Source: an uncultured archaeon (GTDB lineage Archaea; Asgardarchaeota; Thorarchaeia; Thorarchaeales; Thorarchaeaceae). Taken from it: a DNA stretch of 24,166 nucleotides. The stretch lies in the NCBI GenBank assembly GCA_964590575.1, contig CAZPWM010000035.1, positions 6,309 to 30,474 of the forward strand, given 5' to 3'. A program made the translations under genes and the position numbers. The notes beneath the pieces were generated by a model. That model had not been told where the DNA came from. It did no database searches and saw only the letters and a program-made list of their open reading frames with translations. Of this stretch, positions 1,980-24,166 are shown piece by piece (position 1 is the stretch's first letter; the number at the start of each line of letters is the position of its first letter).

Positions 1980-2675
1980 CTATGCTCCAAGAAGTAAGGT
2001 TTCTATCAGGAAGAAGAAGAAGGAAGCATTTCCAATGTAGAGAATCATCACTGTGAAAGCGCCAATAATCTTCAACCAGATGACGCGCTCCCTGACAAGA
2101 TTGAAGCAAATGAATGTTGAGAGACCAAGAAGCAACTCTGGGATAATGATATACCAAGCAAGATTTTCCGTCATTCCAATGACCGTGGCATTCCAAGATG
2201 GCAAAGCAACAAGAGTGATTTCAGCCAAGACAAATATCATTACTGAGAGAATTGACACCACCGTATAGGCCAGATTCAGGGATTTCCGTTCTTGAGTCTC
2301 ATTTCCAACAAACAGGATAATGAAAAATGGTATTGACCAGAGTCCTGCCATGTAGATTGGAATCGCTCCTCCAATCATCGGAAAACCATCAACTGGGAAC
2401 TGCAGCGCGCTCAAGGTTTCTGCAAGATACCAATCCGGAAAGACCATGAGAAGGCTCAGCATGAAAGCAAAAATCCAGATACTCTTCCACTCATCGTATC
2501 CTTTCCCATAGAATTCTACTATGATTAGACCATTGTAGATCATCACCAATACGAGCATTTTACCACTGATGGTGGCTGTTGGGATTGGAACTAAAAGAGT
2601 GACAGCTGCAAGCACAGCAAAGATGACTTGAATTAACAAGAAATCTCTGATCGGTTTTTCACTGAAAATCTGCAT
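1980..2675 (-). CDS. Polytopic membrane protein (DUF6989-like)
   Basis: About 7 hydrophobic segments; motifs FPDWYL, GFPMIGGAIPIYMAGLWSIP and YIIIPE recalled from this family (from memory, unverified). Confidence 0.65.
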   Translation of the reverse strand: MQIFSEKPIRDFLLIQVIFAVLAAVTLLVPIPTATISGKMLVLVMIYNGLIIVEFYGKGYDEWKSIWIFAFMLSLLMVFPDWYLAETLSALQFPVDGFPMIGGAIPIYMAGLWSIPFFIILFVGNETQERKSLNLAYTVVSILSVMIFVLAEITLVALPSWNATVIGMTENLAWYIIIPELLLGLSTFICFNLVRERVIWLKIIGAFTVMILYIGNASFFFFLIETLLLGA

Positions 2676-2822: not shown

Positions 2823-3716
2823 TTGTCAGAAAAAATAGGACAGCTGGATCTAGTCTTTGTTGTTGATAACACTGGATCTATGGGTCCTTACATCAACACA
2901 GTCAAGACAAAGATTCTAGAGATCATTCGCACAATCAAGAAGGAGGAGCTGTGTCATAGACTCAGGGTCGGACTGGTATCGTATCGAGACCATCCTCCAG
3001 AAGAGACCACTTATGTTACTCAGAAATACGAGTTTTCACCAGACACTTCTAAGATTGAAAGCTATGTTATGCAAATGAACGCCTCCGGAGGAGGAGATGG
3101 TCCTGAGGCAGTATCAACCGCACTTCAGGTCATGAATAAGATGGAATTTCTCAACGAGTCAGCCAAGATTGCTGTACTGATAGGTGATGCTCCTCCACAC
3201 GGGGTCGAGTCTGGAGACCGTTGGCCACAAGGTACGCCTGATGGAGCAAAATGGGACTTAGAAGCAAAGAGATCTTTTGAGAAGGGAATCGTTGTCCACA
3301 CTGTCGGATGCTTCCCCGAAATCGCAGGATATCAAAATGCTGTGAAAATATACGAACAGATAGCTGCCAATTCTCAGGGAAGGTTTTTCCCATTAGAGAA
3401 GGCTGATCTTCTTGTCAATATCATCACAGGAATTGCAGTAGAAGAGATTGACAAACTAGCAATCCAGAAGTCAATCCTTGAAGACCTCGGTGTAAGCATG
3501 GAGGAGTTTCCTGCTGACGAAGAGTTCACTGAGGATAAAATCTCAGAGATTGTTGCAAAGGTCCAAGCAAAAGGCGTCAAGAAACGTGCAATGGCTGCCA
3601 GACCTTCCAGTGCTCCTGCTGCAGCAAGTGAAGATCTGAGGATGGAAGAACAGGAGATAGACGAAGCCGACATCCGCGAGGCTGTGCGACAGCTGAAGTT
3701 CAAGTCACGAAAATAG
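2823..3716 (+). CDS. von Willebrand factor A (vWA) domain protein, probably cytoplasmic
   Basis: TTG start after GAGGAG. MIDAS-like DLVFVVDNTGSM, VGLVSYRDH, GGGDGPEAV, VLIGDAPPH. No signal peptide; charged helical C-terminus. Confidence 0.9.
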   Translation: MSEKIGQLDLVFVVDNTGSMGPYINTVKTKILEIIRTIKKEELCHRLRVGLVSYRDHPPEETTYVTQKYEFSPDTSKIESYVMQMNASGGGDGPEAVSTALQVMNKMEFLNESAKIAVLIGDAPPHGVESGDRWPQGTPDGAKWDLEAKRSFEKGIVVHTVGCFPEIAGYQNAVKIYEQIAANSQGRFFPLEKADLLVNIITGIAVEEIDKLAIQKSILEDLGVSMEEFPADEEFTEDKISEIVAKVQAKGVKKRAMAARPSSAPAAASEDLRMEEQEIDEADIREAVRQLKFKSRK

Positions 3717-3804: not shown

Positions 3805-6800
3805 CTATTCACTTTCTTCGACATCACTACTCTTCGATCCCATCTCTTCGAGTTCTACTAGAGCTTCAATTTGATCCTTGGAGAGCTTTTTGAGTTCAGC
3901 GAAGCCAACTGATTCTTTCACCTTTTCAGGGAGAAGCTCGATTAACTCTTTCTTTGTAAGACCTCTGCTTGCTTTTGGTTCTCCGATTTCCTCTTCTGGT
4001 TCGGATTCATCGTCCACAGAAGGCATCACAATCTCTTCAGACTCGATCTTCGTTTCTGGTCCATAATATGGTCCAACATCAAAGGAAGTACCAGTATCAA
4101 TCGGCTCATCTGCAATTTCACTTAGGGCTTTGTCTTCACCAACTCCATCACGTCTACTACGAGAAACTTTAGTTATACTCCTAGCCATCTTGGAGGACAA
4201 ATATGGGACCACCACCAAGAATACCACGGGCATAAGTACAATGACACCAAGAGAATAGCTCTTCAAGAAATCCATTGTCAGTACAGATGTACCAGCTAGG
4301 ACCACAAGGAACATGAAGAATTTTGTACGGATTGACGATCCGAGCTTTTCAACTAAATCCACACATTCCTGTTCCACTACAATGGGAGGTGTACCAAGTA
4401 CAGCCATCTCCCCAATTCTATAAAGTCCCTTGCTTATCTCTCTGTAAAGATTGACAACAACTATCACAATAGATGAGATATAGGCGGCAAATATTGTCAT
4501 CATTATGGTCGGAACTTCTAGTTCTCCAAGATGGAATACATTCTGCAGTACATAGAAATCGAGCCATTCAATACTGCGACCCCAATCAAATAGCTGCATG
4601 ATGACAAATGGGACAAATATCAGGTGCCATAGGCCAAGAAACATCCTTCTCCTGCTAACGGCTTGCGATTGGAGAATTGCCGATGTGGCATCTCTGTAGA
4701 GCCATATACCATAAAGGATTAGCGAAATTCCGAGTAAGAGCACACTTTCCAGAACCGCGAGATCATAGTTACCAGCTCCTGCGGACATATATGAATGAAC
4801 AACGGTCAATCCAGCAATCCCAACAACACCCAGATAGAGGTAATCTAACCTTCGTATCCCTCGAGTTAACTGCGCTTGGGATCCTCTTGTGATGGATAGT
4901 CCAGATGAAATCTTAAAGTATAGAAGCAGACCAATGAAGCTAATCAGGAATGAACCCAGAACCAGGATCCCAAAGTTCTCCATGTCCATTGAGAGCTGCG
5001 GTGCAGGTACAATGACCTCTGCAGTTACACTTCCTACTCCAGCTATGCATGTTGTACCTTCTGCGCTGACTACGATATTGTCCTCGCCAAAGCCCGCTCC
5101 TGTCACAATGAAACTGACAAAATAGGTTCCTTTCTGGGATGTTTCTATTGCTATTTCAGTGTGATTACGAAATGTAACATAAACAGAAAGACCAGACATC
5201 GGATTTCCATATTTGTCTGAAACTTCGATTGTGATGTTTACATATTCTCCCTTTACTGGTCTTTCAGGATAGTATTCTATTTTGAAACTCAGCTCTGCAA
5301 GTATCTCTACTGAACCTCGAAAAGTAGCATCTTGCGAGAGGAAGCTATGTTCGACCATCAGAGTGTAGTTGTACACCCCAGCAGCCCACCCGTCTGTTGA
5401 AACCAAAATAGAGTATGTGCCATTGACAAGATCAGTCAAAATGTAGAACGAATCATGAATGAGAACTGAAACAGAACCCCCAATCATAACATTGCCAAGC
5501 ATGTCTTCCAAATTCAAGGTGAAGAGAATATCTTCGGTTCCTTGGATGAATTGATCCTCGTTCAGTGGGGATAGTACAGACGCAATTGTGTCACTCGTCA
5601 CTTGGATGTTGAAAATTCGGGTTTCTGATGGAAAATGTATTCCCGCAATGGTAATGTTGAGGGCATATGTTCCTGGCACGACCTCTGGAAGTATTGTCCA
5701 AGATTTGAGGGAGGCTGTTGATATACCTGATATACTATATATGCCACCAAAATCAAAAATGTAACTGAAGGTGTAGATTGGATTGTCCCATTGATCAAAC
5801 ACACTAATGTCAAATGTCACATTCTGGTAGTTTAACACAGTTGTTGGATTGGTTACTACTGTGATATGAGCACTCCCAGTAATCGAGAAGTGTACATAGG
5901 CTGTATAGGTGTCCATGAATCCTTGGGAGGCTGTAATCTTTGCTGTGTATTCTCCAAGCGGCAGCTGCGTGGTAGCTAATGTCACCATGTAGATGCCCTG
6001 AGATGTTTCTGTTAATGCGAAAGTGCTACCTAGTAGGTCTAGCTCAACATCTGCTCCTGTTATGTTGAAGAATAGCTCATCCTGTACATGTACTGTGAAC
6101 TGAATTGGAGTTCCCTGTGAAAACGCGGAATAGTCCGTTGGTGTAAGAATAGTAGCAGAAACCACTCCTTGAACATCAATGCTGAAGCTGAACATCGAAT
6201 ATAACAGATAAGTTCCATTCAGCGTCATATTCAGTAAGTACTTACCTGGTGTGAAACTTGGATCGACTGTCCAAGACAGCCGATAGGATGATGAAGTTCC
6301 TGTCAGGTTATATACTCCTGCAAAGTCCAAGGTATAATTGAAACCTGATAATGGATTTCCATATTGATCGGTCACAGTGAAATTGAATGTAACATCGTTC
6401 TTGTTTTGCACTGGGAACGGTGAATATGATAGCTTGACATCAGCGAACCCCTCAAGTGATAGATCCATGGAAACCTCTTGAGAGTCTAGATACGTGTGAA
6501 TAACTCTGATTATTGCATTATACTGACCTAGTGGGAATCCAGCTGTTGGTATGTTTCTAGAGTAAAAACCTGGAATGCCCTCGGTTAACGTATAACTGCT
6601 CCCATGGATTGTGACACTTACTTGGCAACCCGCTATATCATAACCACTCAAGTCTTCCACGTGGACTGTGAAGTTTATTTGATCGCCCTGTGAAATGACT
6701 GAGCCATTTAATGGTGATACGACACTTGCATTCGGAGTTCCCCTCACATCTACCCAGATTGTGTATTCATAATGAGCAATGAAGTTGCCATCAATTACAA

Positions 6801-9800
6801 TATCAAGAGGATAAGATGCGGGGTAGAGATCTGGCAGGAATTCCCAACTCAGTTCATACCAATCTGATGTCCCTGACTTGGAGTAGGTTCCAGCGAAGGT
6901 AAGTGTGTAATCGAAGTTCGAAAGTGGGTTTCCATAAATATCAATGACAGCGAAATACATAGTCACATTTTGATGGTTCCAGACAAGTTCCAGTATCTCT
7001 GCATCAACCACAGCCTGACCGTTAACTGTCAGAGTATGATGAAAGTCTGCTTCAATCAAGTAGGGATGGTCTGCATATACAATCAGGGAGTAATTACCTG
7101 GGGAATATCCGTTTGTGTCCAATGTCACTGAATAGGTTCCATCCCAGTTGTCAATAAAGGCTAGGCTGCCGGGACTTAACATTGTAACAGTTGCACCAGT
7201 AATTGGATTTCCATCCCAGTCTGTTAGTGTGAGGGTCAGAAATGTCGAGTTTCCCTGACTTAGAATCCACCCAAGTGAAGAGTCAAGATCCATACTAGCC
7301 AATGAGTATACAAAGAGGTCGTGATAATCTGACCTTGGGCTACCAAAATCAGACCCAACATATACTACAAAGCTCTGATGTCCAATAGCCAATGACGCAT
7401 TTAATTCAACACTGAATTCAGCACCTGAAATATATTGGGCTGTGAAGTTGCTTCCATCCAGTTCCACAACTGCCCACGCACCATCAGGGAATGCACCATA
7501 TGAATCATAGATGAATATAGAAACAGTGAAGTTTTCCCCTCCATTAACAGTAGATACATAATTAATTACAGGATAGAGGTTTCCTGTGACTACCATATAG
7601 AATTCGCCGAAGTTCCTTCCTTCAACATAAGGATGTTCCACAGTGATTTTCGCTGTGTAATTACCAACAGGCAATGCAGCTGCAGTATTTAACCGATATT
7701 TTCCTGACTGAATTTCGCTAAGTGGAAACTCATTTCCATCAAAGCTAATTCTCACATCAGCGCCACTGATAGAATTACCGTATGTATCAGTAATGTTAAG
7801 CCAAATTACGAAATACTGGTCTTGAGTCACTTGACTAGGGGCGCTTCTTGCTATATTCAGCGTATTTGTGAAGATGGAAACAGAGCTTGCTAGATTCTTG
7901 ACACTTGTTGCATAGCTATGGTTTGCAGAAACCAGTAGAGCATAGCTCCCGGGCGCCTTCGTTACACTTGGTATCAATATCCAATAGAATTGCCCAACAT
8001 GAGTTGCTACATACTCAGTAGCATCAAAGGTCAATGTTACATCTGCATTTACGACCTTACCGCCTAGGCTGTCAGTAACAGTAATGTTGACTTGAAGATC
8101 ATTACCTTGTAGTAGCTCGGGCTCACGAATGATAGAGATGGCCAAAGGCGACTCCACCCTCAATGCATCTGCTTCGAATTGAGTAAATGGGTCATAGTAA
8201 TCATGATTTACATTGAGAGTTAGATTTACCATACCCATTGGCCAATTAGGAGTAATAATGGTTGTATAAAGATGCATGATTTCATCATAGACTAATCCAA
8301 GTGTTTGTTGGGATGTCCCGCCTCCAAACTCGTACTCAAACTTCAGTGAAACCACTGAATCAGAAACTGGTTCATTATAGGCATTTAGGACTGTGGCATT
8401 AGCCCAGATATTGCTGCCCTGAAGAGTTGTGCTTGATTCTAATACAAAAGTTGTATTCAGAATGTATAGGAGATCAATGTTACGAATTGTCGCTAGACTA
8501 TATCGAGCACGAAGTACAGGGAATGCTGCAATGTCTTCACCTACACCAGCATCGACACTAGTCACTTTGACCATATTGAATATCATTCCAACTTGAGCTT
8601 GATATTCAACAACACCCTGGAAATTGATAGCTGTAAGCATGTCATCTGATGTTGAAATCAGAAACTCATCTGCGCCATCTCCATCATAATCCAATGTAAC
8701 TACACTGGTTGGGAATGCCTCACTAACAAACACAGACCACTGTCTGGGTGTTGCATCCGCTAAATCACATAGCGAAATGTTTCCTGATTCCTCGAAGACA
8801 AATAATTCGTCAATCTCATCAGAGTCTACATCATAGGGGAATACTCCTTTAATGTGATCCCCTAGCAACTCCGTATATGGGGCATCTCCCACTTGTAATG
8901 TTTGATAATCAATCAAGCACAAGTAAATCGTAGGAGTGTCGCCCGACCAGCCACTATATGCAACAAGGAATTGCTCACTTACGTGTGTTGAGTTCTTGTA
9001 TGGAGCAATTCCAAGAGGCATGTCTCCTAATGTTAAACCCGGTGAAGAATAATCCAAAGTTTTCAGTTTTGTAAGGTTGTAAGCCTGATAGATATCTACT
9101 CTACTATTATCTCTTAGAATTGCTATCTGAGGTCTTGCACCTACAATCGTAGCATATGCCATTCCCACTACATCGTTGTTATCCAAAAGCGCATCAGTGA
9201 TTGCAATTGAAAAATCATGTTCTATCCTTCTGATAGAGCGAGTGGAGTAGTTACCCTCAACATAGTGAATCTCATCAAATCCGTCCTGATCATCATCAAA
9301 TACAAATATTGGGTTCTCATTGATTACTGGAACCTCTTTGTAAGCCACATTCTTCCAGGAAGTCAAATCAATTCCATGAAACACATAGAATATTGTGTGA
9401 GTTGAGTTGTACCTGACGACAACCGGATCCAAAATTGCATCACCATCATGCATACCAGAATAGACCTCGAAGCTATCGTATGGTTTCGTGCTTCCGATAA
9501 TGACATCTGAAATAGCAGTTCCATTAGGTGCGAAAGTTCGTAGTGTTGCCGTCCTTGCAGTTGAATCAATGGTGATTATGTGAATTAGCTCGTCGCCAAT
9601 GGTATTATTGCCTTGAGCAAGAACATGACCCATTGCATGGTCGATTGTCGCATTGAAATAGAAACCATCTGCAAAGTGGTCCTCAACGTTGAGTGTTTCT
9701 GGATTTGTTTCATTTCCATAAGCGAACGAGTTTAGATATGCATCGATAATCTCGATGTAGTAGAGGTACTCTCCTGCCTGTAAGTCTGTAGTGATGTAGA

Positions 9801-11316
9801 TGTATTTGTCATTAGGAGCTCTAATCATCTCGTTTGCGATGAATGCTGTAACTGGTCCCCCAGTAGCTGTTTTAATATAAATCGTAGCACGTTCAACATG
9901 GATGTTGTCTGTAGCTGTGAGTTCAATTTTCATATAGGTGTCATAAATAGTTGGATGTGCAGGGTACAACGGATCTAGGATAACATTAGGTGTTTCTGTA
10001 TCACTCAAAAGAATAGACACTGTATCCATTAATGTGATGATGTCCTCTCTTCCATCTTCATTGATATCAAATGAAATGACCTGATAGAATGGTCCTGGAA
10101 GCCGATTTTCTTCATATCCAATCGCTCCATTACTTCCCCTTATCAGTGTCAGCTGCCCTCGTGGACCTTCCATAGCCAAATCCGTATATGAGTCTGAATC
10201 TAAAACTGCCGCGGCAAACCCTCGATACCAGTAACAGGAAACCGCTTCCTGTGAGTGTCTGATTAATGTACCAGAATATCCATCGAAGAACCATGCTATA
10301 TGCCACATTGTTGGTACAACTACAAGATCATCTATGGAGTCATCATTGAAAGAGCCCGTTTTGACATAGATATCTCCGTAATAATCAGGAATCTTTCTAA
10401 CAAAGCTAGCCGTCAGATTATTACCATAAATTCCTACTAGTTCACTAGTTCCTAACTCTTGATTCATTAGTGTGATAGCTAGATCATCCAGTTCGCTGCG
10501 TCTAGAATGAAGTGTCATGTCACTAGCAGTAGACATGCTTGGGTACTCACTCCACTGCACAGGCGTCCCATCACCTGCTATGGTTTCAACATTCACTTTT
10601 TGCAACCCCCAATCAGTACTGAGAATTGCAATCTCATCCTGCGAAGATACTGAGAAATTCCCTGCAATAGCTCTTTTTATCTCTGGCATGGGATTATAGA
10701 CTCCAATTTGGCTTCCATCATTCAGATCAATCATTAGGATGAAATCCGTGTTGTAGATGGCAGCATCTGTCAGACTATCCGCGGTGAAGTTTCCAAAAAT
10801 AATCTCAGTGGGTCCTGGAACAGGACAGTTATAGTATGTGACGGAACTTGCATCAAAATCAGCAATAACTAGCTGCTCATTTGCTGTTGTTTCATTGAAC
10901 ATAATGAAGAGAAATTCGGTATAACCATCACCATCTATGTCAGCTCCTGTAAGCGTTTCGTGAAACACTCCACCGGGTCCGATTAAAAGCGAGTCATTTA
11001 GTTGGTTGATCGGATCTTTGAAGCGAATAGTTTCTTCATGAACATACGCGAATCCGGACCCTATAGGGATTGTACCTAGAGCAATCGAATACACCTGATA
11101 TGGTAGCTTAACTCTAATGAAGTTGGATGCTGTGGAGTAGCCAGTTTCGATAGGAATGACATCTCCTTTTACTACGGGCTGCACCATGCCCATATCTGAA
11201 GATGGGGTCAATAAGAAGAGTATCGTGATGAATAACACACTCCACTTCAACAGATACGAGTGTCTTCCTGAATATTCTCTTGTAGTTGGTCTAAATCTTG
11301 ATGAGGATGATGTCAT
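3805..11316 (-). CDS. Giant surface protein: two FG-GAP/VCBS-type beta-propellers, tandem Ig-like domains, 7 TM helices, acidic tail
   Basis: Uninterrupted ORF of about 2503 aa. ATG 11316 is preferred over TTG 11325 because AGGAG directly abuts the TTG. N-terminal hydrophobic segment WSVLFITILFLL; repeated DxDxDGxxD/E motifs; 12 tandem ~95-aa repeats; many NxS/T sequons; seven hydrophobic helices at about aa 2115-2375. Confidence 0.88.
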   Translation of the reverse strand: MTSSSSRFRPTTREYSGRHSYLLKWSVLFITILFLLTPSSDMGMVQPVVKGDVIPIETGYSTASNFIRVKLPYQVYSIALGTIPIGSGFAYVHEETIRFKDPINQLNDSLLIGPGGVFHETLTGADIDGDGYTEFLFIMFNETTANEQLVIADFDASSVTYYNCPVPGPTEIIFGNFTADSLTDAAIYNTDFILMIDLNDGSQIGVYNPMPEIKRAIAGNFSVSSQDEIAILSTDWGLQKVNVETIAGDGTPVQWSEYPSMSTASDMTLHSRRSELDDLAITLMNQELGTSELVGIYGNNLTASFVRKIPDYYGDIYVKTGSFNDDSIDDLVVVPTMWHIAWFFDGYSGTLIRHSQEAVSCYWYRGFAAAVLDSDSYTDLAMEGPRGQLTLIRGSNGAIGYEENRLPGPFYQVISFDINEDGREDIITLMDTVSILLSDTETPNVILDPLYPAHPTIYDTYMKIELTATDNIHVERATIYIKTATGGPVTAFIANEMIRAPNDKYIYITTDLQAGEYLYYIEIIDAYLNSFAYGNETNPETLNVEDHFADGFYFNATIDHAMGHVLAQGNNTIGDELIHIITIDSTARTATLRTFAPNGTAISDVIIGSTKPYDSFEVYSGMHDGDAILDPVVVRYNSTHTIFYVFHGIDLTSWKNVAYKEVPVINENPIFVFDDDQDGFDEIHYVEGNYSTRSIRRIEHDFSIAITDALLDNNDVVGMAYATIVGARPQIAILRDNSRVDIYQAYNLTKLKTLDYSSPGLTLGDMPLGIAPYKNSTHVSEQFLVAYSGWSGDTPTIYLCLIDYQTLQVGDAPYTELLGDHIKGVFPYDVDSDEIDELFVFEESGNISLCDLADATPRQWSVFVSEAFPTSVVTLDYDGDGADEFLISTSDDMLTAINFQGVVEYQAQVGMIFNMVKVTSVDAGVGEDIAAFPVLRARYSLATIRNIDLLYILNTTFVLESSTTLQGSNIWANATVLNAYNEPVSDSVVSLKFEYEFGGGTSQQTLGLVYDEIMHLYTTIITPNWPMGMVNLTLNVNHDYYDPFTQFEADALRVESPLAISIIREPELLQGNDLQVNITVTDSLGGKVVNADVTLTFDATEYVATHVGQFYWILIPSVTKAPGSYALLVSANHSYATSVKNLASSVSIFTNTLNIARSAPSQVTQDQYFVIWLNITDTYGNSISGADVRISFDGNEFPLSEIQSGKYRLNTAAALPVGNYTAKITVEHPYVEGRNFGEFYMVVTGNLYPVINYVSTVNGGENFTVSIFIYDSYGAFPDGAWAVVELDGSNFTAQYISGAEFSVELNASLAIGHQSFVVYVGSDFGSPRSDYHDLFVYSLASMDLDSSLGWILSQGNSTFLTLTLTDWDGNPITGATVTMLSPGSLAFIDNWDGTYSVTLDTNGYSPGNYSLIVYADHPYLIEADFHHTLTVNGQAVVDAEILELVWNHQNVTMYFAVIDIYGNPLSNFDYTLTFAGTYSKSGTSDWYELSWEFLPDLYPASYPLDIVIDGNFIAHYEYTIWVDVRGTPNASVVSPLNGSVISQGDQINFTVHVEDLSGYDIAGCQVSVTIHGSSYTLTEGIPGFYSRNIPTAGFPLGQYNAIIRVIHTYLDSQEVSMDLSLEGFADVKLSYSPFPVQNKNDVTFNFTVTDQYGNPLSGFNYTLDFAGVYNLTGTSSSYRLSWTVDPSFTPGKYLLNMTLNGTYLLYSMFSFSIDVQGVVSATILTPTDYSAFSQGTPIQFTVHVQDELFFNITGADVELDLLGSTFALTETSQGIYMVTLATTQLPLGEYTAKITASQGFMDTYTAYVHFSITGSAHITVVTNPTTVLNYQNVTFDISVFDQWDNPIYTFSYIFDFGGIYSISGISTASLKSWTILPEVVPGTYALNITIAGIHFPSETRIFNIQVTSDTIASVLSPLNEDQFIQGTEDILFTLNLEDMLGNVMIGGSVSVLIHDSFYILTDLVNGTYSILVSTDGWAAGVYNYTLMVEHSFLSQDATFRGSVEILAELSFKIEYYPERPVKGEYVNITIEVSDKYGNPMSGLSVYVTFRNHTEIAIETSQKGTYFVSFIVTGAGFGEDNIVVSAEGTTCIAGVGSVTAEVIVPAPQLSMDMENFGILVLGSFLISFIGLLLYFKISSGLSITRGSQAQLTRGIRRLDYLYLGVVGIAGLTVVHSYMSAGAGNYDLAVLESVLLLGISLILYGIWLYRDATSAILQSQAVSRRRMFLGLWHLIFVPFVIMQLFDWGRSIEWLDFYVLQNVFHLGELEVPTIMMTIFAAYISSIVIVVVNLYREISKGLYRIGEMAVLGTPPIVVEQECVDLVEKLGSSIRTKFFMFLVVLAGTSVLTMDFLKSYSLGVIVLMPVVFLVVVPYLSSKMARSITKVSRSRRDGVGEDKALSEIADEPIDTGTSFDVGPYYGPETKIESEEIVMPSVDDESEPEEEIGEPKASRGLTKKELIELLPEKVKESVGFAELKKLSKDQIEALVELEEMGSKSSDVEESE
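5000..8460 (-). repeat. 12 tandem Ig-like (beta-sandwich) protein repeats inside the giant CDS
   Basis: Recurring pattern (Q/N)G..hxhxhxD.xG.Ph..A.V ... Gx Y.h.h ... (P/L)G.Y.h.h...H.Y roughly every 95 aa. Boundaries approximate. Confidence 0.8.
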
Positions 11317-11518
11317 CTTTAGCAATCTCCTTTTGATTCTTAAGCATCCTTAATTTGGTGCACTATGCATGGTATAGCCTCAATACAGCCAACCAATCAT
11401 TATGATATTCATAGTATGTGTATTTAGAATTCCTCGCATGTAATAATACGAAAAATAGGGATTTGTTTAGACTTCAGATAAAATTGTTAGGTTTCAAATT
11501 CTCCAGGAATAGAATAAG

Positions 11519-12260: not shown

Positions 12261-12644
12261 TCATTCAATAGGGAGTTGAGGCAAAGGAATCTCTGCTGTA
12301 TATTCCGTACCGCACTCACAATTCAGGTTTACTGACCATCGCTTTGGTACTGGAACATTGAAATTCTTGATATGATTGGAAAGACTATCTCGCACTCCGG
12401 TTAGTAGTTTCACGTAAGCATCAGACAGAGTTATGATTTCTGCTGGGAAGTCCAGATCAGATAGAAAATACCTGAATGCTTTCTGACACTCAGGACATGC
12501 TGTATGTAGTAAGTGTGTAACATCGCCACAGTTGGCACACTTTATCTCATCCCGATTGAGTTTTGGTGCAATTGGTACCTCCAATTTCAAGTCATTCTGG
12601 TGACCACAAACATAGCAGTAATATCGAAGTGGAAGCTCTGGCAT
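12261..12644 (-). CDS. Multi-Cys zinc-ribbon hypothetical protein
   Basis: CYVC, CANC, CPEC and CEC motifs in 127 aa; GAGG motif upstream of the ATG. Confidence 0.75.
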   Translation of the reverse strand: MPELPLRYYCYVCGHQNDLKLEVPIAPKLNRDEIKCANCGDVTHLLHTACPECQKAFRYFLSDLDFPAEIITLSDAYVKLLTGVRDSLSNHIKNFNVPVPKRWSVNLNCECGTEYTAEIPLPQLPIE

Positions 12645-23521: not shown

Positions 23522-24166
23522 CTAGTCTTCTGTCTCCTCGTCTTCCGCAATCTTCTCTCTCAATTCTTTCACAAATTCGTCCAATTCACCGTCTTCTTCC
23601 TTATCCTCATCGGCTCTCGCAACAAGAAGCGATTCAACATCTTGAACAAAAGCTTCCATTGGATCCGGTTCGGGCTCTGGTTCTTCTACAATTTCTTTGT
23701 GAGGCTCATCAATTACTTCTTCAGTAAGTTCTTCGAATTCGAGTTCTTCAGCCATTTCAGGAGGGGCTTTTTCAGGTTCAGTTTCATCTTGAGGTTTTAG
23801 TTGATCAACCTTGATTGAGGGCCCAGCCCTAGAGTCATCGGAACCATTCACAAGAGTTAGTCCTTGACGTTGAAGAATTGTCTGAATGCCAATAGGTATG
23901 ATGATTCCCCTATCTTGGAGAACGAGAAGCCGGTCAAGTACTTCTGCTTCACTCTTGTCTAACATCTCAGCTAGAGGTGATAGTAAATTCTTGATGTAGA
24001 ACTCACTCTTTTCATCTCGTACTGCGCCAATATAGTCTAGAATCCTAGCATCCATTTTGTTTACTTTCTGCGTGGGTCCAAATCTATGTGGCAGGTGCCA
24101 TGCATAATTGAATGCGGAATTCAATGTTGCTACAACCCATTCGGGGTCAAAACAATCAATAAGTCC
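23522..24166 (-). CDS. Hypothetical protein, 5'-truncated; winged-helix-like segment plus acidic tail
   Basis: Frame open to the window end (GLIDCFDPEWVVATLNSAF...). LAEMLDKSEAEVLDRLLVLQDRGIIIP resembles a wHTH; E/D/P-rich C-terminus. Confidence 0.75.
   Translation of the reverse strand, partial: GLIDCFDPEWVVATLNSAFNYAWHLPHRFGPTQKVNKMDARILDYIGAVRDEKSEFYIKNLLSPLAEMLDKSEAEVLDRLLVLQDRGIIIPIGIQTILQRQGLTLVNGSDDSRAGPSIKVDQLKPQDETEPEKAPPEMAEELEFEELTEEVIDEPHKEIVEEPEPEPDPMEAFVQDVESLLVARADEDKEEDGELDEFVKELREKIAEDEETED

Follow-up and report, generated by a model that had tools for sequence, protein, structure and literature searches.

A predicted seven-helix membrane module without a named family at the C-terminal end of giant surface proteins of Asgard archaea

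The longest gene in a 24,166-nucleotide (nt) stretch of DNA from an uncultured archaeon of the Thorarchaeaceae (contig CAZPWM010000035.1, positions 6,309 to 30,474; the whole stretch is called the window below) encodes a giant predicted surface protein whose C-terminal part crosses the membrane seven times in our analysis. Its open reading frame (ORF) runs from 3805 to 11325 on the reverse strand (-) as one stop-free frame of 2,506 codons, the only one of such length in the window. The interval 4198-4975 (-), in which a seven-transmembrane (7TM) module resembling a G protein-coupled receptor (GPCR) had been proposed from the letters alone (the original prediction), corresponds exactly to amino acids (aa) 2117-2376 of this ORF. 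From the N- to the C-terminus, the protein is laid out as a signal sequence, about 900 aa with FG-GAP-like repeats, about 1,150 aa of immunoglobulin (Ig)-like, sequon-rich sequence, the seven-helix module, and a cytoplasmic tail. Judging by the searches and predicted structures described here, the module looks like a family without a name and without a structural relative among solved structures. On balance, we lean toward regarding it as the conserved anchoring and coupling base of adhesin-like surface proteins of Asgard archaea, and not as a GPCR homolog.

The seven hydrophobic segments quoted in the original prediction, and its basic loop strings TRGIRR, VSRRR, REISK..RTK, and KMARSITKVSRSRR, are all present in the translation as written. 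The Kyte-Doolittle means of the transmembrane (TM) segments were 2.38 for TM1, 1.40 for TM2, 2.03 for TM3, 2.00 for TM4, 2.17 for TM5, 2.21 for TM6, and 2.72 for TM7. Because the hydropathy of the ectodomain (aa 49-2100), averaged over 19 aa, never rose above 1.4, six of these segments stand far above background. Lysine and arginine residues numbered 21 across the four inner segments compared with 2 across the four outer ones, as the positive-inside rule requires. An orientation with the N-terminus outside and the C-terminus inside (N-out/C-in) is indicated by this bias, by the sequon-rich region that precedes TM1, by the signal-like N-terminus, and by the zinc ribbons that follow TM7 in distant homologs. 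Since the N-terminal side would therefore be extracellular and the C-terminal side cytoplasmic, the number of helices has to be odd, which supports TM2 and a total of seven. The predicted seven-helix N-out/C-in topology was thus confirmed by hydropathy, charge distribution, and a confident AlphaFold2 model. Two smaller claims held as well: the TM5-TM6 inner loop is long (41 aa as measured), and TM7 has no lysine, hence no retinal-type lysine that would mark the module as a rhodopsin.

The AlphaFold2 model of a 288-aa piece, built on a 54-sequence alignment, had a predicted local distance difference test score (pLDDT) of 89 and a predicted template modeling score of 0.82. It placed helices at residues 8-36, 43-76, 80-113, 118-142, 166-202, 207-243, and 250-286 of the piece, and this pattern was reproduced in a second model of 507 aa (pLDDT 82.6), which extended over the tail and over the Ig domain ahead of TM1. 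At the core of the modeled module, TM3 to TM6 form a long up-and-down four-helix bundle, and the helices of TM2, TM3, TM5, TM6, and TM7 overrun the membrane on the cytoplasmic side by 10-20 residues. In the TM5-TM6 hairpin both helices extend about 15-20 residues beyond the membrane, with the motif GTP at the tip. As for the amphipathic helix that had been expected after TM7, the model shows the TM7 helix continuing, and its amphipathic character is weak, with a hydrophobic moment of 0.48 that 7.7% of shuffles reach. A homodimer prediction with two copies of the module (module-only alignment A3) scored 0.25 against a mark of 0.42 and was used neither way.

Residue conservation was counted over 54 aligned family sequences. 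Phe2339 in TM6 and Pro2366 in TM7 were found in all 54, Asp2212 of the LLYGxWLYRD motif at the end of TM3 in 52, and Lys2335 of the conserved SIRxKF motif at the start of TM6 in 48, while Leu2340 (TM6) was present in 96% and both Pro2109, before TM1, and Tyr2164, at the start of TM2, in 94%. Ser2285 and the NLYRE motif at the end of TM5 were also conserved, as were Y2294, E2320, R2333, and K2335 in the TM5-TM6 hairpin. The best-conserved residues lie at the cytoplasmic membrane boundary (YRD after TM3, YRE after TM5, and SIRxKF before TM6), and the second conserved element is the outer helix-plus-hairpin between TM4 and TM5, with G2249, W2254, F2255, Y2258, G2267, and P2272. The alignment shows that these regions, the predicted cytoplasmic boundary and one outer hairpin, are under strong purifying selection. 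In each of the 13 full-length comparisons, no part of the protein was as conserved as the module: identity in the module compared with the rest was, for example, 90% against 76-82% for close orthologs, 78% against 45-54% in another case, and 44-52% against 15-30% for distant relatives.

The original prediction had suggested a function beyond anchoring from polar residues inside the membrane. Three of the four residues flagged were not conserved, namely His2177 in TM2 (12 of 54), Glu2193 in TM3 (13 of 54), and Gln2244 in TM4 (11 of 54); only His2234, in the GLWHL motif of TM4, was (40 of 54, with Gln instead in the most distant group). A function beyond anchoring is nevertheless plausible, given that the module as a whole is better conserved than the rest of the protein.

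The same pattern bears on the view that the module does no more than anchor the protein passively, which we consider unlikely. The seven helices would in this case only have to withstand the forces pulling at so long a stalk, the cell possibly being without a rigid wall, and the conservation would reflect helix packing instead of signaling or the binding of partners. It is consistent with this view that many members end about 8 aa after TM7, and so have no cytoplasmic domain, and that no partner gene is conserved; a passage of a preprint stating that no S-layer lattice could be modeled for Asgardarchaeota (bioRxiv 2024.05.28.596244) was also counted in its favor. Another passage of that preprint, according to which one TM helix or a lipid anchor generally suffices for archaeal surface proteins (bioRxiv 2024.05.28.596244), speaks against it. 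So does the nature of the top conserved positions, which are charged or aromatic residues in the cytoplasmic extensions (YRD, YRE, E2320, and SIRxKF) and in the outer hairpin rather than lipid-facing ones, and so does the fact that the module was more conserved than every part of the ectodomain in 13 of 13 comparisons.

No known family was recovered for the module. Pfam returned none for the module of the window at E ≤ 10, NCBIfam nothing over the module region, and the ESM Atlas a best feature score of 0.79 with no named cluster; in a search of PDB sequences, a profile of the closer alignment (A2) matched only the Ig-type flanks, at E ≥ 0.25. For the 41 members of the module-only alignment, the Pfam matches were all below threshold. 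Neither a 7tm family nor 7TMR-DISM_7TM was found for the module of the window or among the 25 families listed of the 42 matched by these members. The family DUF2207 (PF20990, DUF2207_C) was considered and rejected, as it matched 5 of the 41 members with 14.4-16.2 bits against a cut-off of 33 and at inconsistent positions in the module.

Structural comparison gave a similar picture. Foldseek found 0 matches at E ≤ 1e-3 among 350,542 PDB chains, and the best row, a chain of mGlu2, had an E of 0.12, a TMq of 0.23, and a root-mean-square deviation of 20.8 Å. The predicted helix arrangement thus had no significant match to a 7TM receptor fold, and in the structure search of the PDB TM3-TM6 superposed well on plain four-helix bundles. 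A fold of the GPCR, rhodopsin, or PAQR type was consequently not supported, and neither was any likeness to GPCRs beyond topology. The two outcomes named in the original prediction as evidence against it, helix packing unrelated to 7TM receptors and polar residues that are not conserved, are largely what was observed.

A very distant GPCR-type seven-helix fold, by which the protein would be the archaeal counterpart of the adhesion GPCRs, has a very small probability in our estimation. The helix count, the N-out/C-in orientation, and the giant adhesion-type ectodomain are the same; the charged YRD at the cytoplasmic end of TM3 stands where GPCRs carry DRY; and GPCR chains made up 19 of the 46 Foldseek rows listed, all with E ≥ 0.12 and TMq ≤ 0.25. 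Besides the absence of a 7tm family in the Pfam searches described above, what argues against such a fold is that no GAIN/GPS domain was found in a Pfam scan of the whole protein, the region before TM1 being modeled as an Ig-like beta-sandwich, that TM7 lacks a motif like NPxxY, the TM7 motif of GPCRs, and that TM3-TM6 fit plain four-helix bundles instead.

A seven-helix hydrolase or receptor of the PAQR/hemolysin-III type is scarcely credible. In PAQRs the N-terminus faces the cytoplasm, and His and Asp residues form a conserved metal site with an HxxxH-type motif. The module is N-out, the opposite orientation, and His2234 is its sole conserved histidine, with no HxxxH-type metal motif among the conserved residues. 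Weak HlyIII (PF03006) matches were obtained in 2 of the 41 members (best E 5e-4), and the match in locus L063 aligned residues 16-153 with profile positions 42-178 at 16.8 bits, against a cut-off of 26.2. All matches were below the gathering score, the module of the window and the other 39 members had none, and no adiponectin-receptor chain was present among the 50 rows listed in the structure searches behind the four-helix-bundle match.

Because His2234 and Ser2285 are conserved polar residues within helices, a channel or transporter subunit that oligomerizes into a pore gated by the ectodomain was also weighed, following either a polycystin-like logic or the four-helix TM domains of pentameric ligand-gated channels. 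Beyond these two positions no conserved polar residues formed a pore-lining pattern, and neither Pfam nor the PDB sequence search revealed similarity to any channel family, which makes this alternative highly doubtful.

An exhaustive HMMER search of 1.84 billion representatives retrieved 89 cluster representatives at E ≤ 1e-3 and 43 at E ≤ 1e-30, and the profile searches with alignment A3 gave 55 and 25 matches, all of the same family. Among 153 proteins examined, the module lies near the C-terminus of the long ones, followed by 0-220 aa (often about 8) after the match, while the short matches come mostly from short contigs and look like fragments. The source labels were Thorarchaeota, Sifarchaeia, Promethearchaeota, Odinarchaeota (one), Lokiarchaeota (one), Helarchaeota, and one Latescibacterota. 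In a scan of contigs from one genome per species, made with alignment A2, 59 of 59 loci were titled Thorarchaeota, Promethearchaeota, Hermodarchaeota, or uncultured archaeon. A single-query scan of 400 genomes of the phylum of the window, which undercounts distant members, detected the module in 88, including 56 of the 85 genomes of its own family. The genome from which the window comes (3.40 Mb, 91% complete) has two copies, the second being a paralog of 1,847 codons with 46% identity. On the evidence of these labels, the module appears to be restricted to Asgard archaea. We found no paper describing the family, which may be listed in the supplements of PMC9258230 and of Liu et al. (2021); the former deals with other "integrin-like" families of Asgard archaea and cites Liu et al. 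(2021) on integrin-repeat proteins in this group.

Although the reading frame can begin with TTG, the true start is likely the ATG at 11316, giving a protein of 2,503 aa. This codon was preferred because GGAG occurs just upstream of it and because the N-terminus it yields, MTSSSSRFRP..., aligns better with the N-termini of the homologs. The database gene model P0003 (2,460 aa) starts 46 codons into the ORF (window 11187-11325, -), so that the basic (F/Y)RP motif and the hydrophobic segment resembling a signal sequence are probably both missing from it. This segment (aa 25-43) is conserved in homologs that have complete N-termini, and we read it as a Sec signal peptide or a signal anchor.

On direct reading of the sequence, DxDxDG-type motifs are repeated over the N-terminal 900 or so residues. 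The Pfam scan of the whole protein gave borderline matches at about aa 830-900 to FG-GAP (PF01839; 22.9 bits, cut-off 22.1) and FG-GAP_3 (PF13517; 26.5 bits, cut-off 26.9), the second of which was matched more strongly by the homolog P0103 (1.1e-10), and the distal ectodomain probably folds as one or more beta-propellers. In the stalk, the matches were to Invasin_D3 (3e-15), Big_1 (2.6e-13), Big_7 (1.4e-6), and other Ig-like repeats, and the last Ig domain before TM1 was modeled by AlphaFold2 as a beta-sandwich with a pLDDT above 90. Before TM1 there are 42 N-x-S/T sequons, compared with 18.6 ± 3.9 in shuffled sequences. Three short contigs of one metatranscriptome run matched the gene at an identity of at least 99%, all within the part coding for the ectodomain and none over the 7TM part; as RNA libraries can contain DNA, they are weak evidence of expression and uninformative about the module.

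Both ends of the protein vary among members. FG-GAP repeats occur in the ectodomain of P0103 and a BNR_2 propeller in that of P0126, and the tail measures about 130 aa in the ortholog group of the window and 8-70 aa in the paralog group, and is a double zinc ribbon in a distant group. This last domain follows TM7 in P0155 (PF12773, 30.1 bits against a cut-off of 27.3) and was also annotated in rows of the A3 profile searches. In the tail of the window's protein, the acidic linker (aa 2406-2450) was modeled with a pLDDT below 50 (residues 407-451 of the 507-aa model) and is taken as disordered, and the C-terminal helical motif is conserved in the ortholog group. A label of the helix-extension-helix/SAP type, suggested by the look of this motif, was dropped, as Pfam gave no match at E ≤ 10 and the PDB sequence search none below an E of 0.44.

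Under the reading that we favor, the module would be a constant base beneath differing propeller or Ig ectodomains and differing tails. It would hold the long glycosylated stalk firmly in the membrane, through the conserved cytoplasmic platform the ectodomain would be connected with the variable tails or with partners in the cytoplasm, and the architecture would work like an adhesion receptor without homology to GPCRs. Several observations weigh against this reading. Anchoring and coupling are deduced only from architecture and conservation, TM2 is marginal on hydropathy alone, and no partner gene is conserved with the module across the family, the gene order being different around distant members. 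Detection with a single query was sparse outside the family of the window, for example in 13 of the 135 genomes of family f22. The protein P0095 (1,451 aa, 40% identity in the module), on a contig of 4.4 kb, is labeled Candidatus Latescibacterota and may be a binning error or a real, rare bacterial copy. Finally, the GPCR chains among the Foldseek rows leave a faint chance of a very remote receptor relationship. We also propose, tentatively, that Asgard archaea may possess adhesion receptors of their own, in which giant glycosylated propeller-plus-Ig ectodomains would stand on a seven-helix transducer, of a fold absent from solved structures, that passes contact or force inward via the platform and via tails such as the zinc ribbons or the small helical motif at the C-terminus.

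Large ectodomains mounted on a receptor-like base that spans the membrane several times are already known, in adhesion GPCRs, 7TMR-DISM proteins, and polycystin-1; the module itself is unnamed. The adhesion GPCRs of animals (family B2) likewise have a huge ectodomain of adhesion repeats directly before a seven-helix N-out/C-in domain with a cytoplasmic tail, and the expected logic, binding or force at the ectodomain coupled to the cell interior, is the same. In the protein described here, by contrast, the 7TM part shows no sequence or convincing structural similarity to theirs, no autoproteolytic GAIN/GPS domain precedes TM1, the core is the TM3-TM6 four-helix bundle with long cytoplasmic extensions, and the host is archaeal. 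Integrin alpha subunits share distal FG-GAP-type repeats (borderline here) followed by an Ig-like stalk, at the cell surface and glycosylated (predicted here). Where they have one TM helix and a short tail, the Thorarchaeota protein has seven helices followed by a tail of 130 aa, and no beta-subunit partner is apparent; a neighboring vWA protein is without visible signal or TM segment and is linked only in close relatives. The bacterial 7TMR-DISM proteins also combine an extracellular domain, seven TM helices, and variable cytoplasmic modules, but in the present family the tails consist of zinc ribbons, acidic linkers, or a small helical motif and include no recognizable signaling enzymes, no 7TMR-DISM match was obtained by Pfam for the module of the window or among the families listed for the members, and apart from one contig all labels are Asgard. 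Polycystin-1-type proteins resemble the protein of the window in that a multi-pass membrane domain is joined to a giant ectodomain in which Ig-like repeats are numerous. Polycystin-1 has eleven helices, whereas the module has seven and no TRP-like channel domain, and there was no match in sequence or fold.

Asgard archaea are the closest known relatives of eukaryotes, and models of how eukaryotes arose turn on how these cells make contact with surfaces and partners. To our knowledge, their surface proteins are almost unstudied, and the module forms the base of some of the largest of them. If Asgard archaea do have adhesion receptors of their own, the combination of a big ectodomain and a 7TM domain would have been invented independently in the closest archaeal relatives of eukaryotes, and it could bear on how syntrophic partners are held. 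The results also caution against annotating such proteins as "GPCR-like" by helix count alone, and they point to the outer hairpin, the cytoplasmic YRD / YRE / SIRxKF platform, and the variable tails as concrete targets. The coordinates of all features are collected in Table 1.

Table 1. Positions of the giant surface protein and its predicted parts in the window
Feature	Residues (aa)	Window positions	Strand	Evidence and remarks
Giant surface protein, whole ORF	1-2506	3805..11325	-	2,506 aa from TTG at 11325; stop codon 3805-3807
N-terminal hydrophobic segment	25-43	11197..11253	-	Hydropathy 1.65-1.76; after a basic stretch with the conserved (F/Y)RP motif
Distal ectodomain	~61-950	8476..11145	-	Recurring DxDxDG-type, calcium-binding-like motifs and FG-GAP-like repeats
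Ig-like stalk	~951-2105	5011..8475	-	Pfam matches to repeated Ig-like domains
Seven-helix membrane module	2117-2376	4198..4975	-	Hydropathy, family search, AlphaFold2
TM1, out to in	2118-2137	4915..4974	-	Model and hydropathy; conserved Pro2109 just ahead
TM2, in to out	2162-2180	4786..4842	-	Model helix 43-76; hydropathy 1.40 (lowest); conserved Tyr2164
TM3	2189-2210	4696..4761	-	Model; ends in LLYGxWLYRD at the cytoplasmic boundary
TM4	2228-2246	4588..4644	-	Model; holds the GLWHL motif
TM4-TM5 outer loop	2247-2272	4510..4587	-	Model: H146-153, E156-159, E162-165 (short helix and beta-hairpin)
TM5	2273-2293	4447..4509	-	Model; conserved Ser2285; ends in NLYRE
TM5-TM6 cytoplasmic helical hairpin	2294-2335	4321..4446	-	Model helices 166-202 and 207-243
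TM6	2336-2351	4273..4320	-	Model and conservation
TM7	2359-2376	4198..4251	-	Model and conservation; no Lys
Cytoplasmic tail (130 aa)	2377-2506	3808..4197	-	Basic juxtamembrane helix, "EIAD" motif, acidic linker, helical motif
C-terminal helical motif LTKKELIELLPEKVKESVGFAELKKLSKDQIEAL...	2458-2502	3820-3954	-	pLDDT ~95 (459-503 of the 507-aa model)

The neighbors of the giant gene in the window are ordinary archaeal genes: NadE-like, DUF6989, OsmC, LarA, and a thiolase with a DUF35-like partner. Tail-to-tail with it, at 2823-3716 (+), lies the gene for the vWA protein of 297 aa (VWA 9.3e-11, VWA_4 1.2e-12), whose C-terminal half is charged; neither a signal nor a TM segment is obvious in it, and it would be cytoplasmic. 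This protein is 89-95% identical in six related loci, compared with 66-72% for the flanking NadE (a seventh locus match, L001, is the window's own region). It was rejected as a partner because it is absent from the loci of more distant orthologs.

In the 1,840-aa paralog group, a convergent gene for a membrane protein of about 500 aa was found next to the module gene in 23 loci (including L031:10950-12458, L037:11008-12651, and L047:10923-12569), and no such gene is near the giant gene of the window. The product starts with a segment resembling a signal sequence, holds a CxxC...CxxC zinc ribbon flanked by TM segments, carries a long acidic tail, and matched no Pfam family. By analogy, it may be a split counterpart of the members with a zinc ribbon after TM7.

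Three other genes of the region were noted. A 127-aa protein with four CxxC pairs and a sub-threshold DZR match (5.9e-4) is encoded upstream of the giant gene at 12261-12644 (-) and is syntenic in five close loci, and a polytopic membrane protein of 231 aa assigned to DUF6989 (7.8e-41), at 1980-2675 (-), is syntenic in six. At 23522-24124 (-) a protein of 200 aa combines a weak HTH-like match with a very acidic C-terminal half (EEPEPEPDP..., DEDKEEDGELDE), and acidic tails of this kind are common to several proteins of the region.

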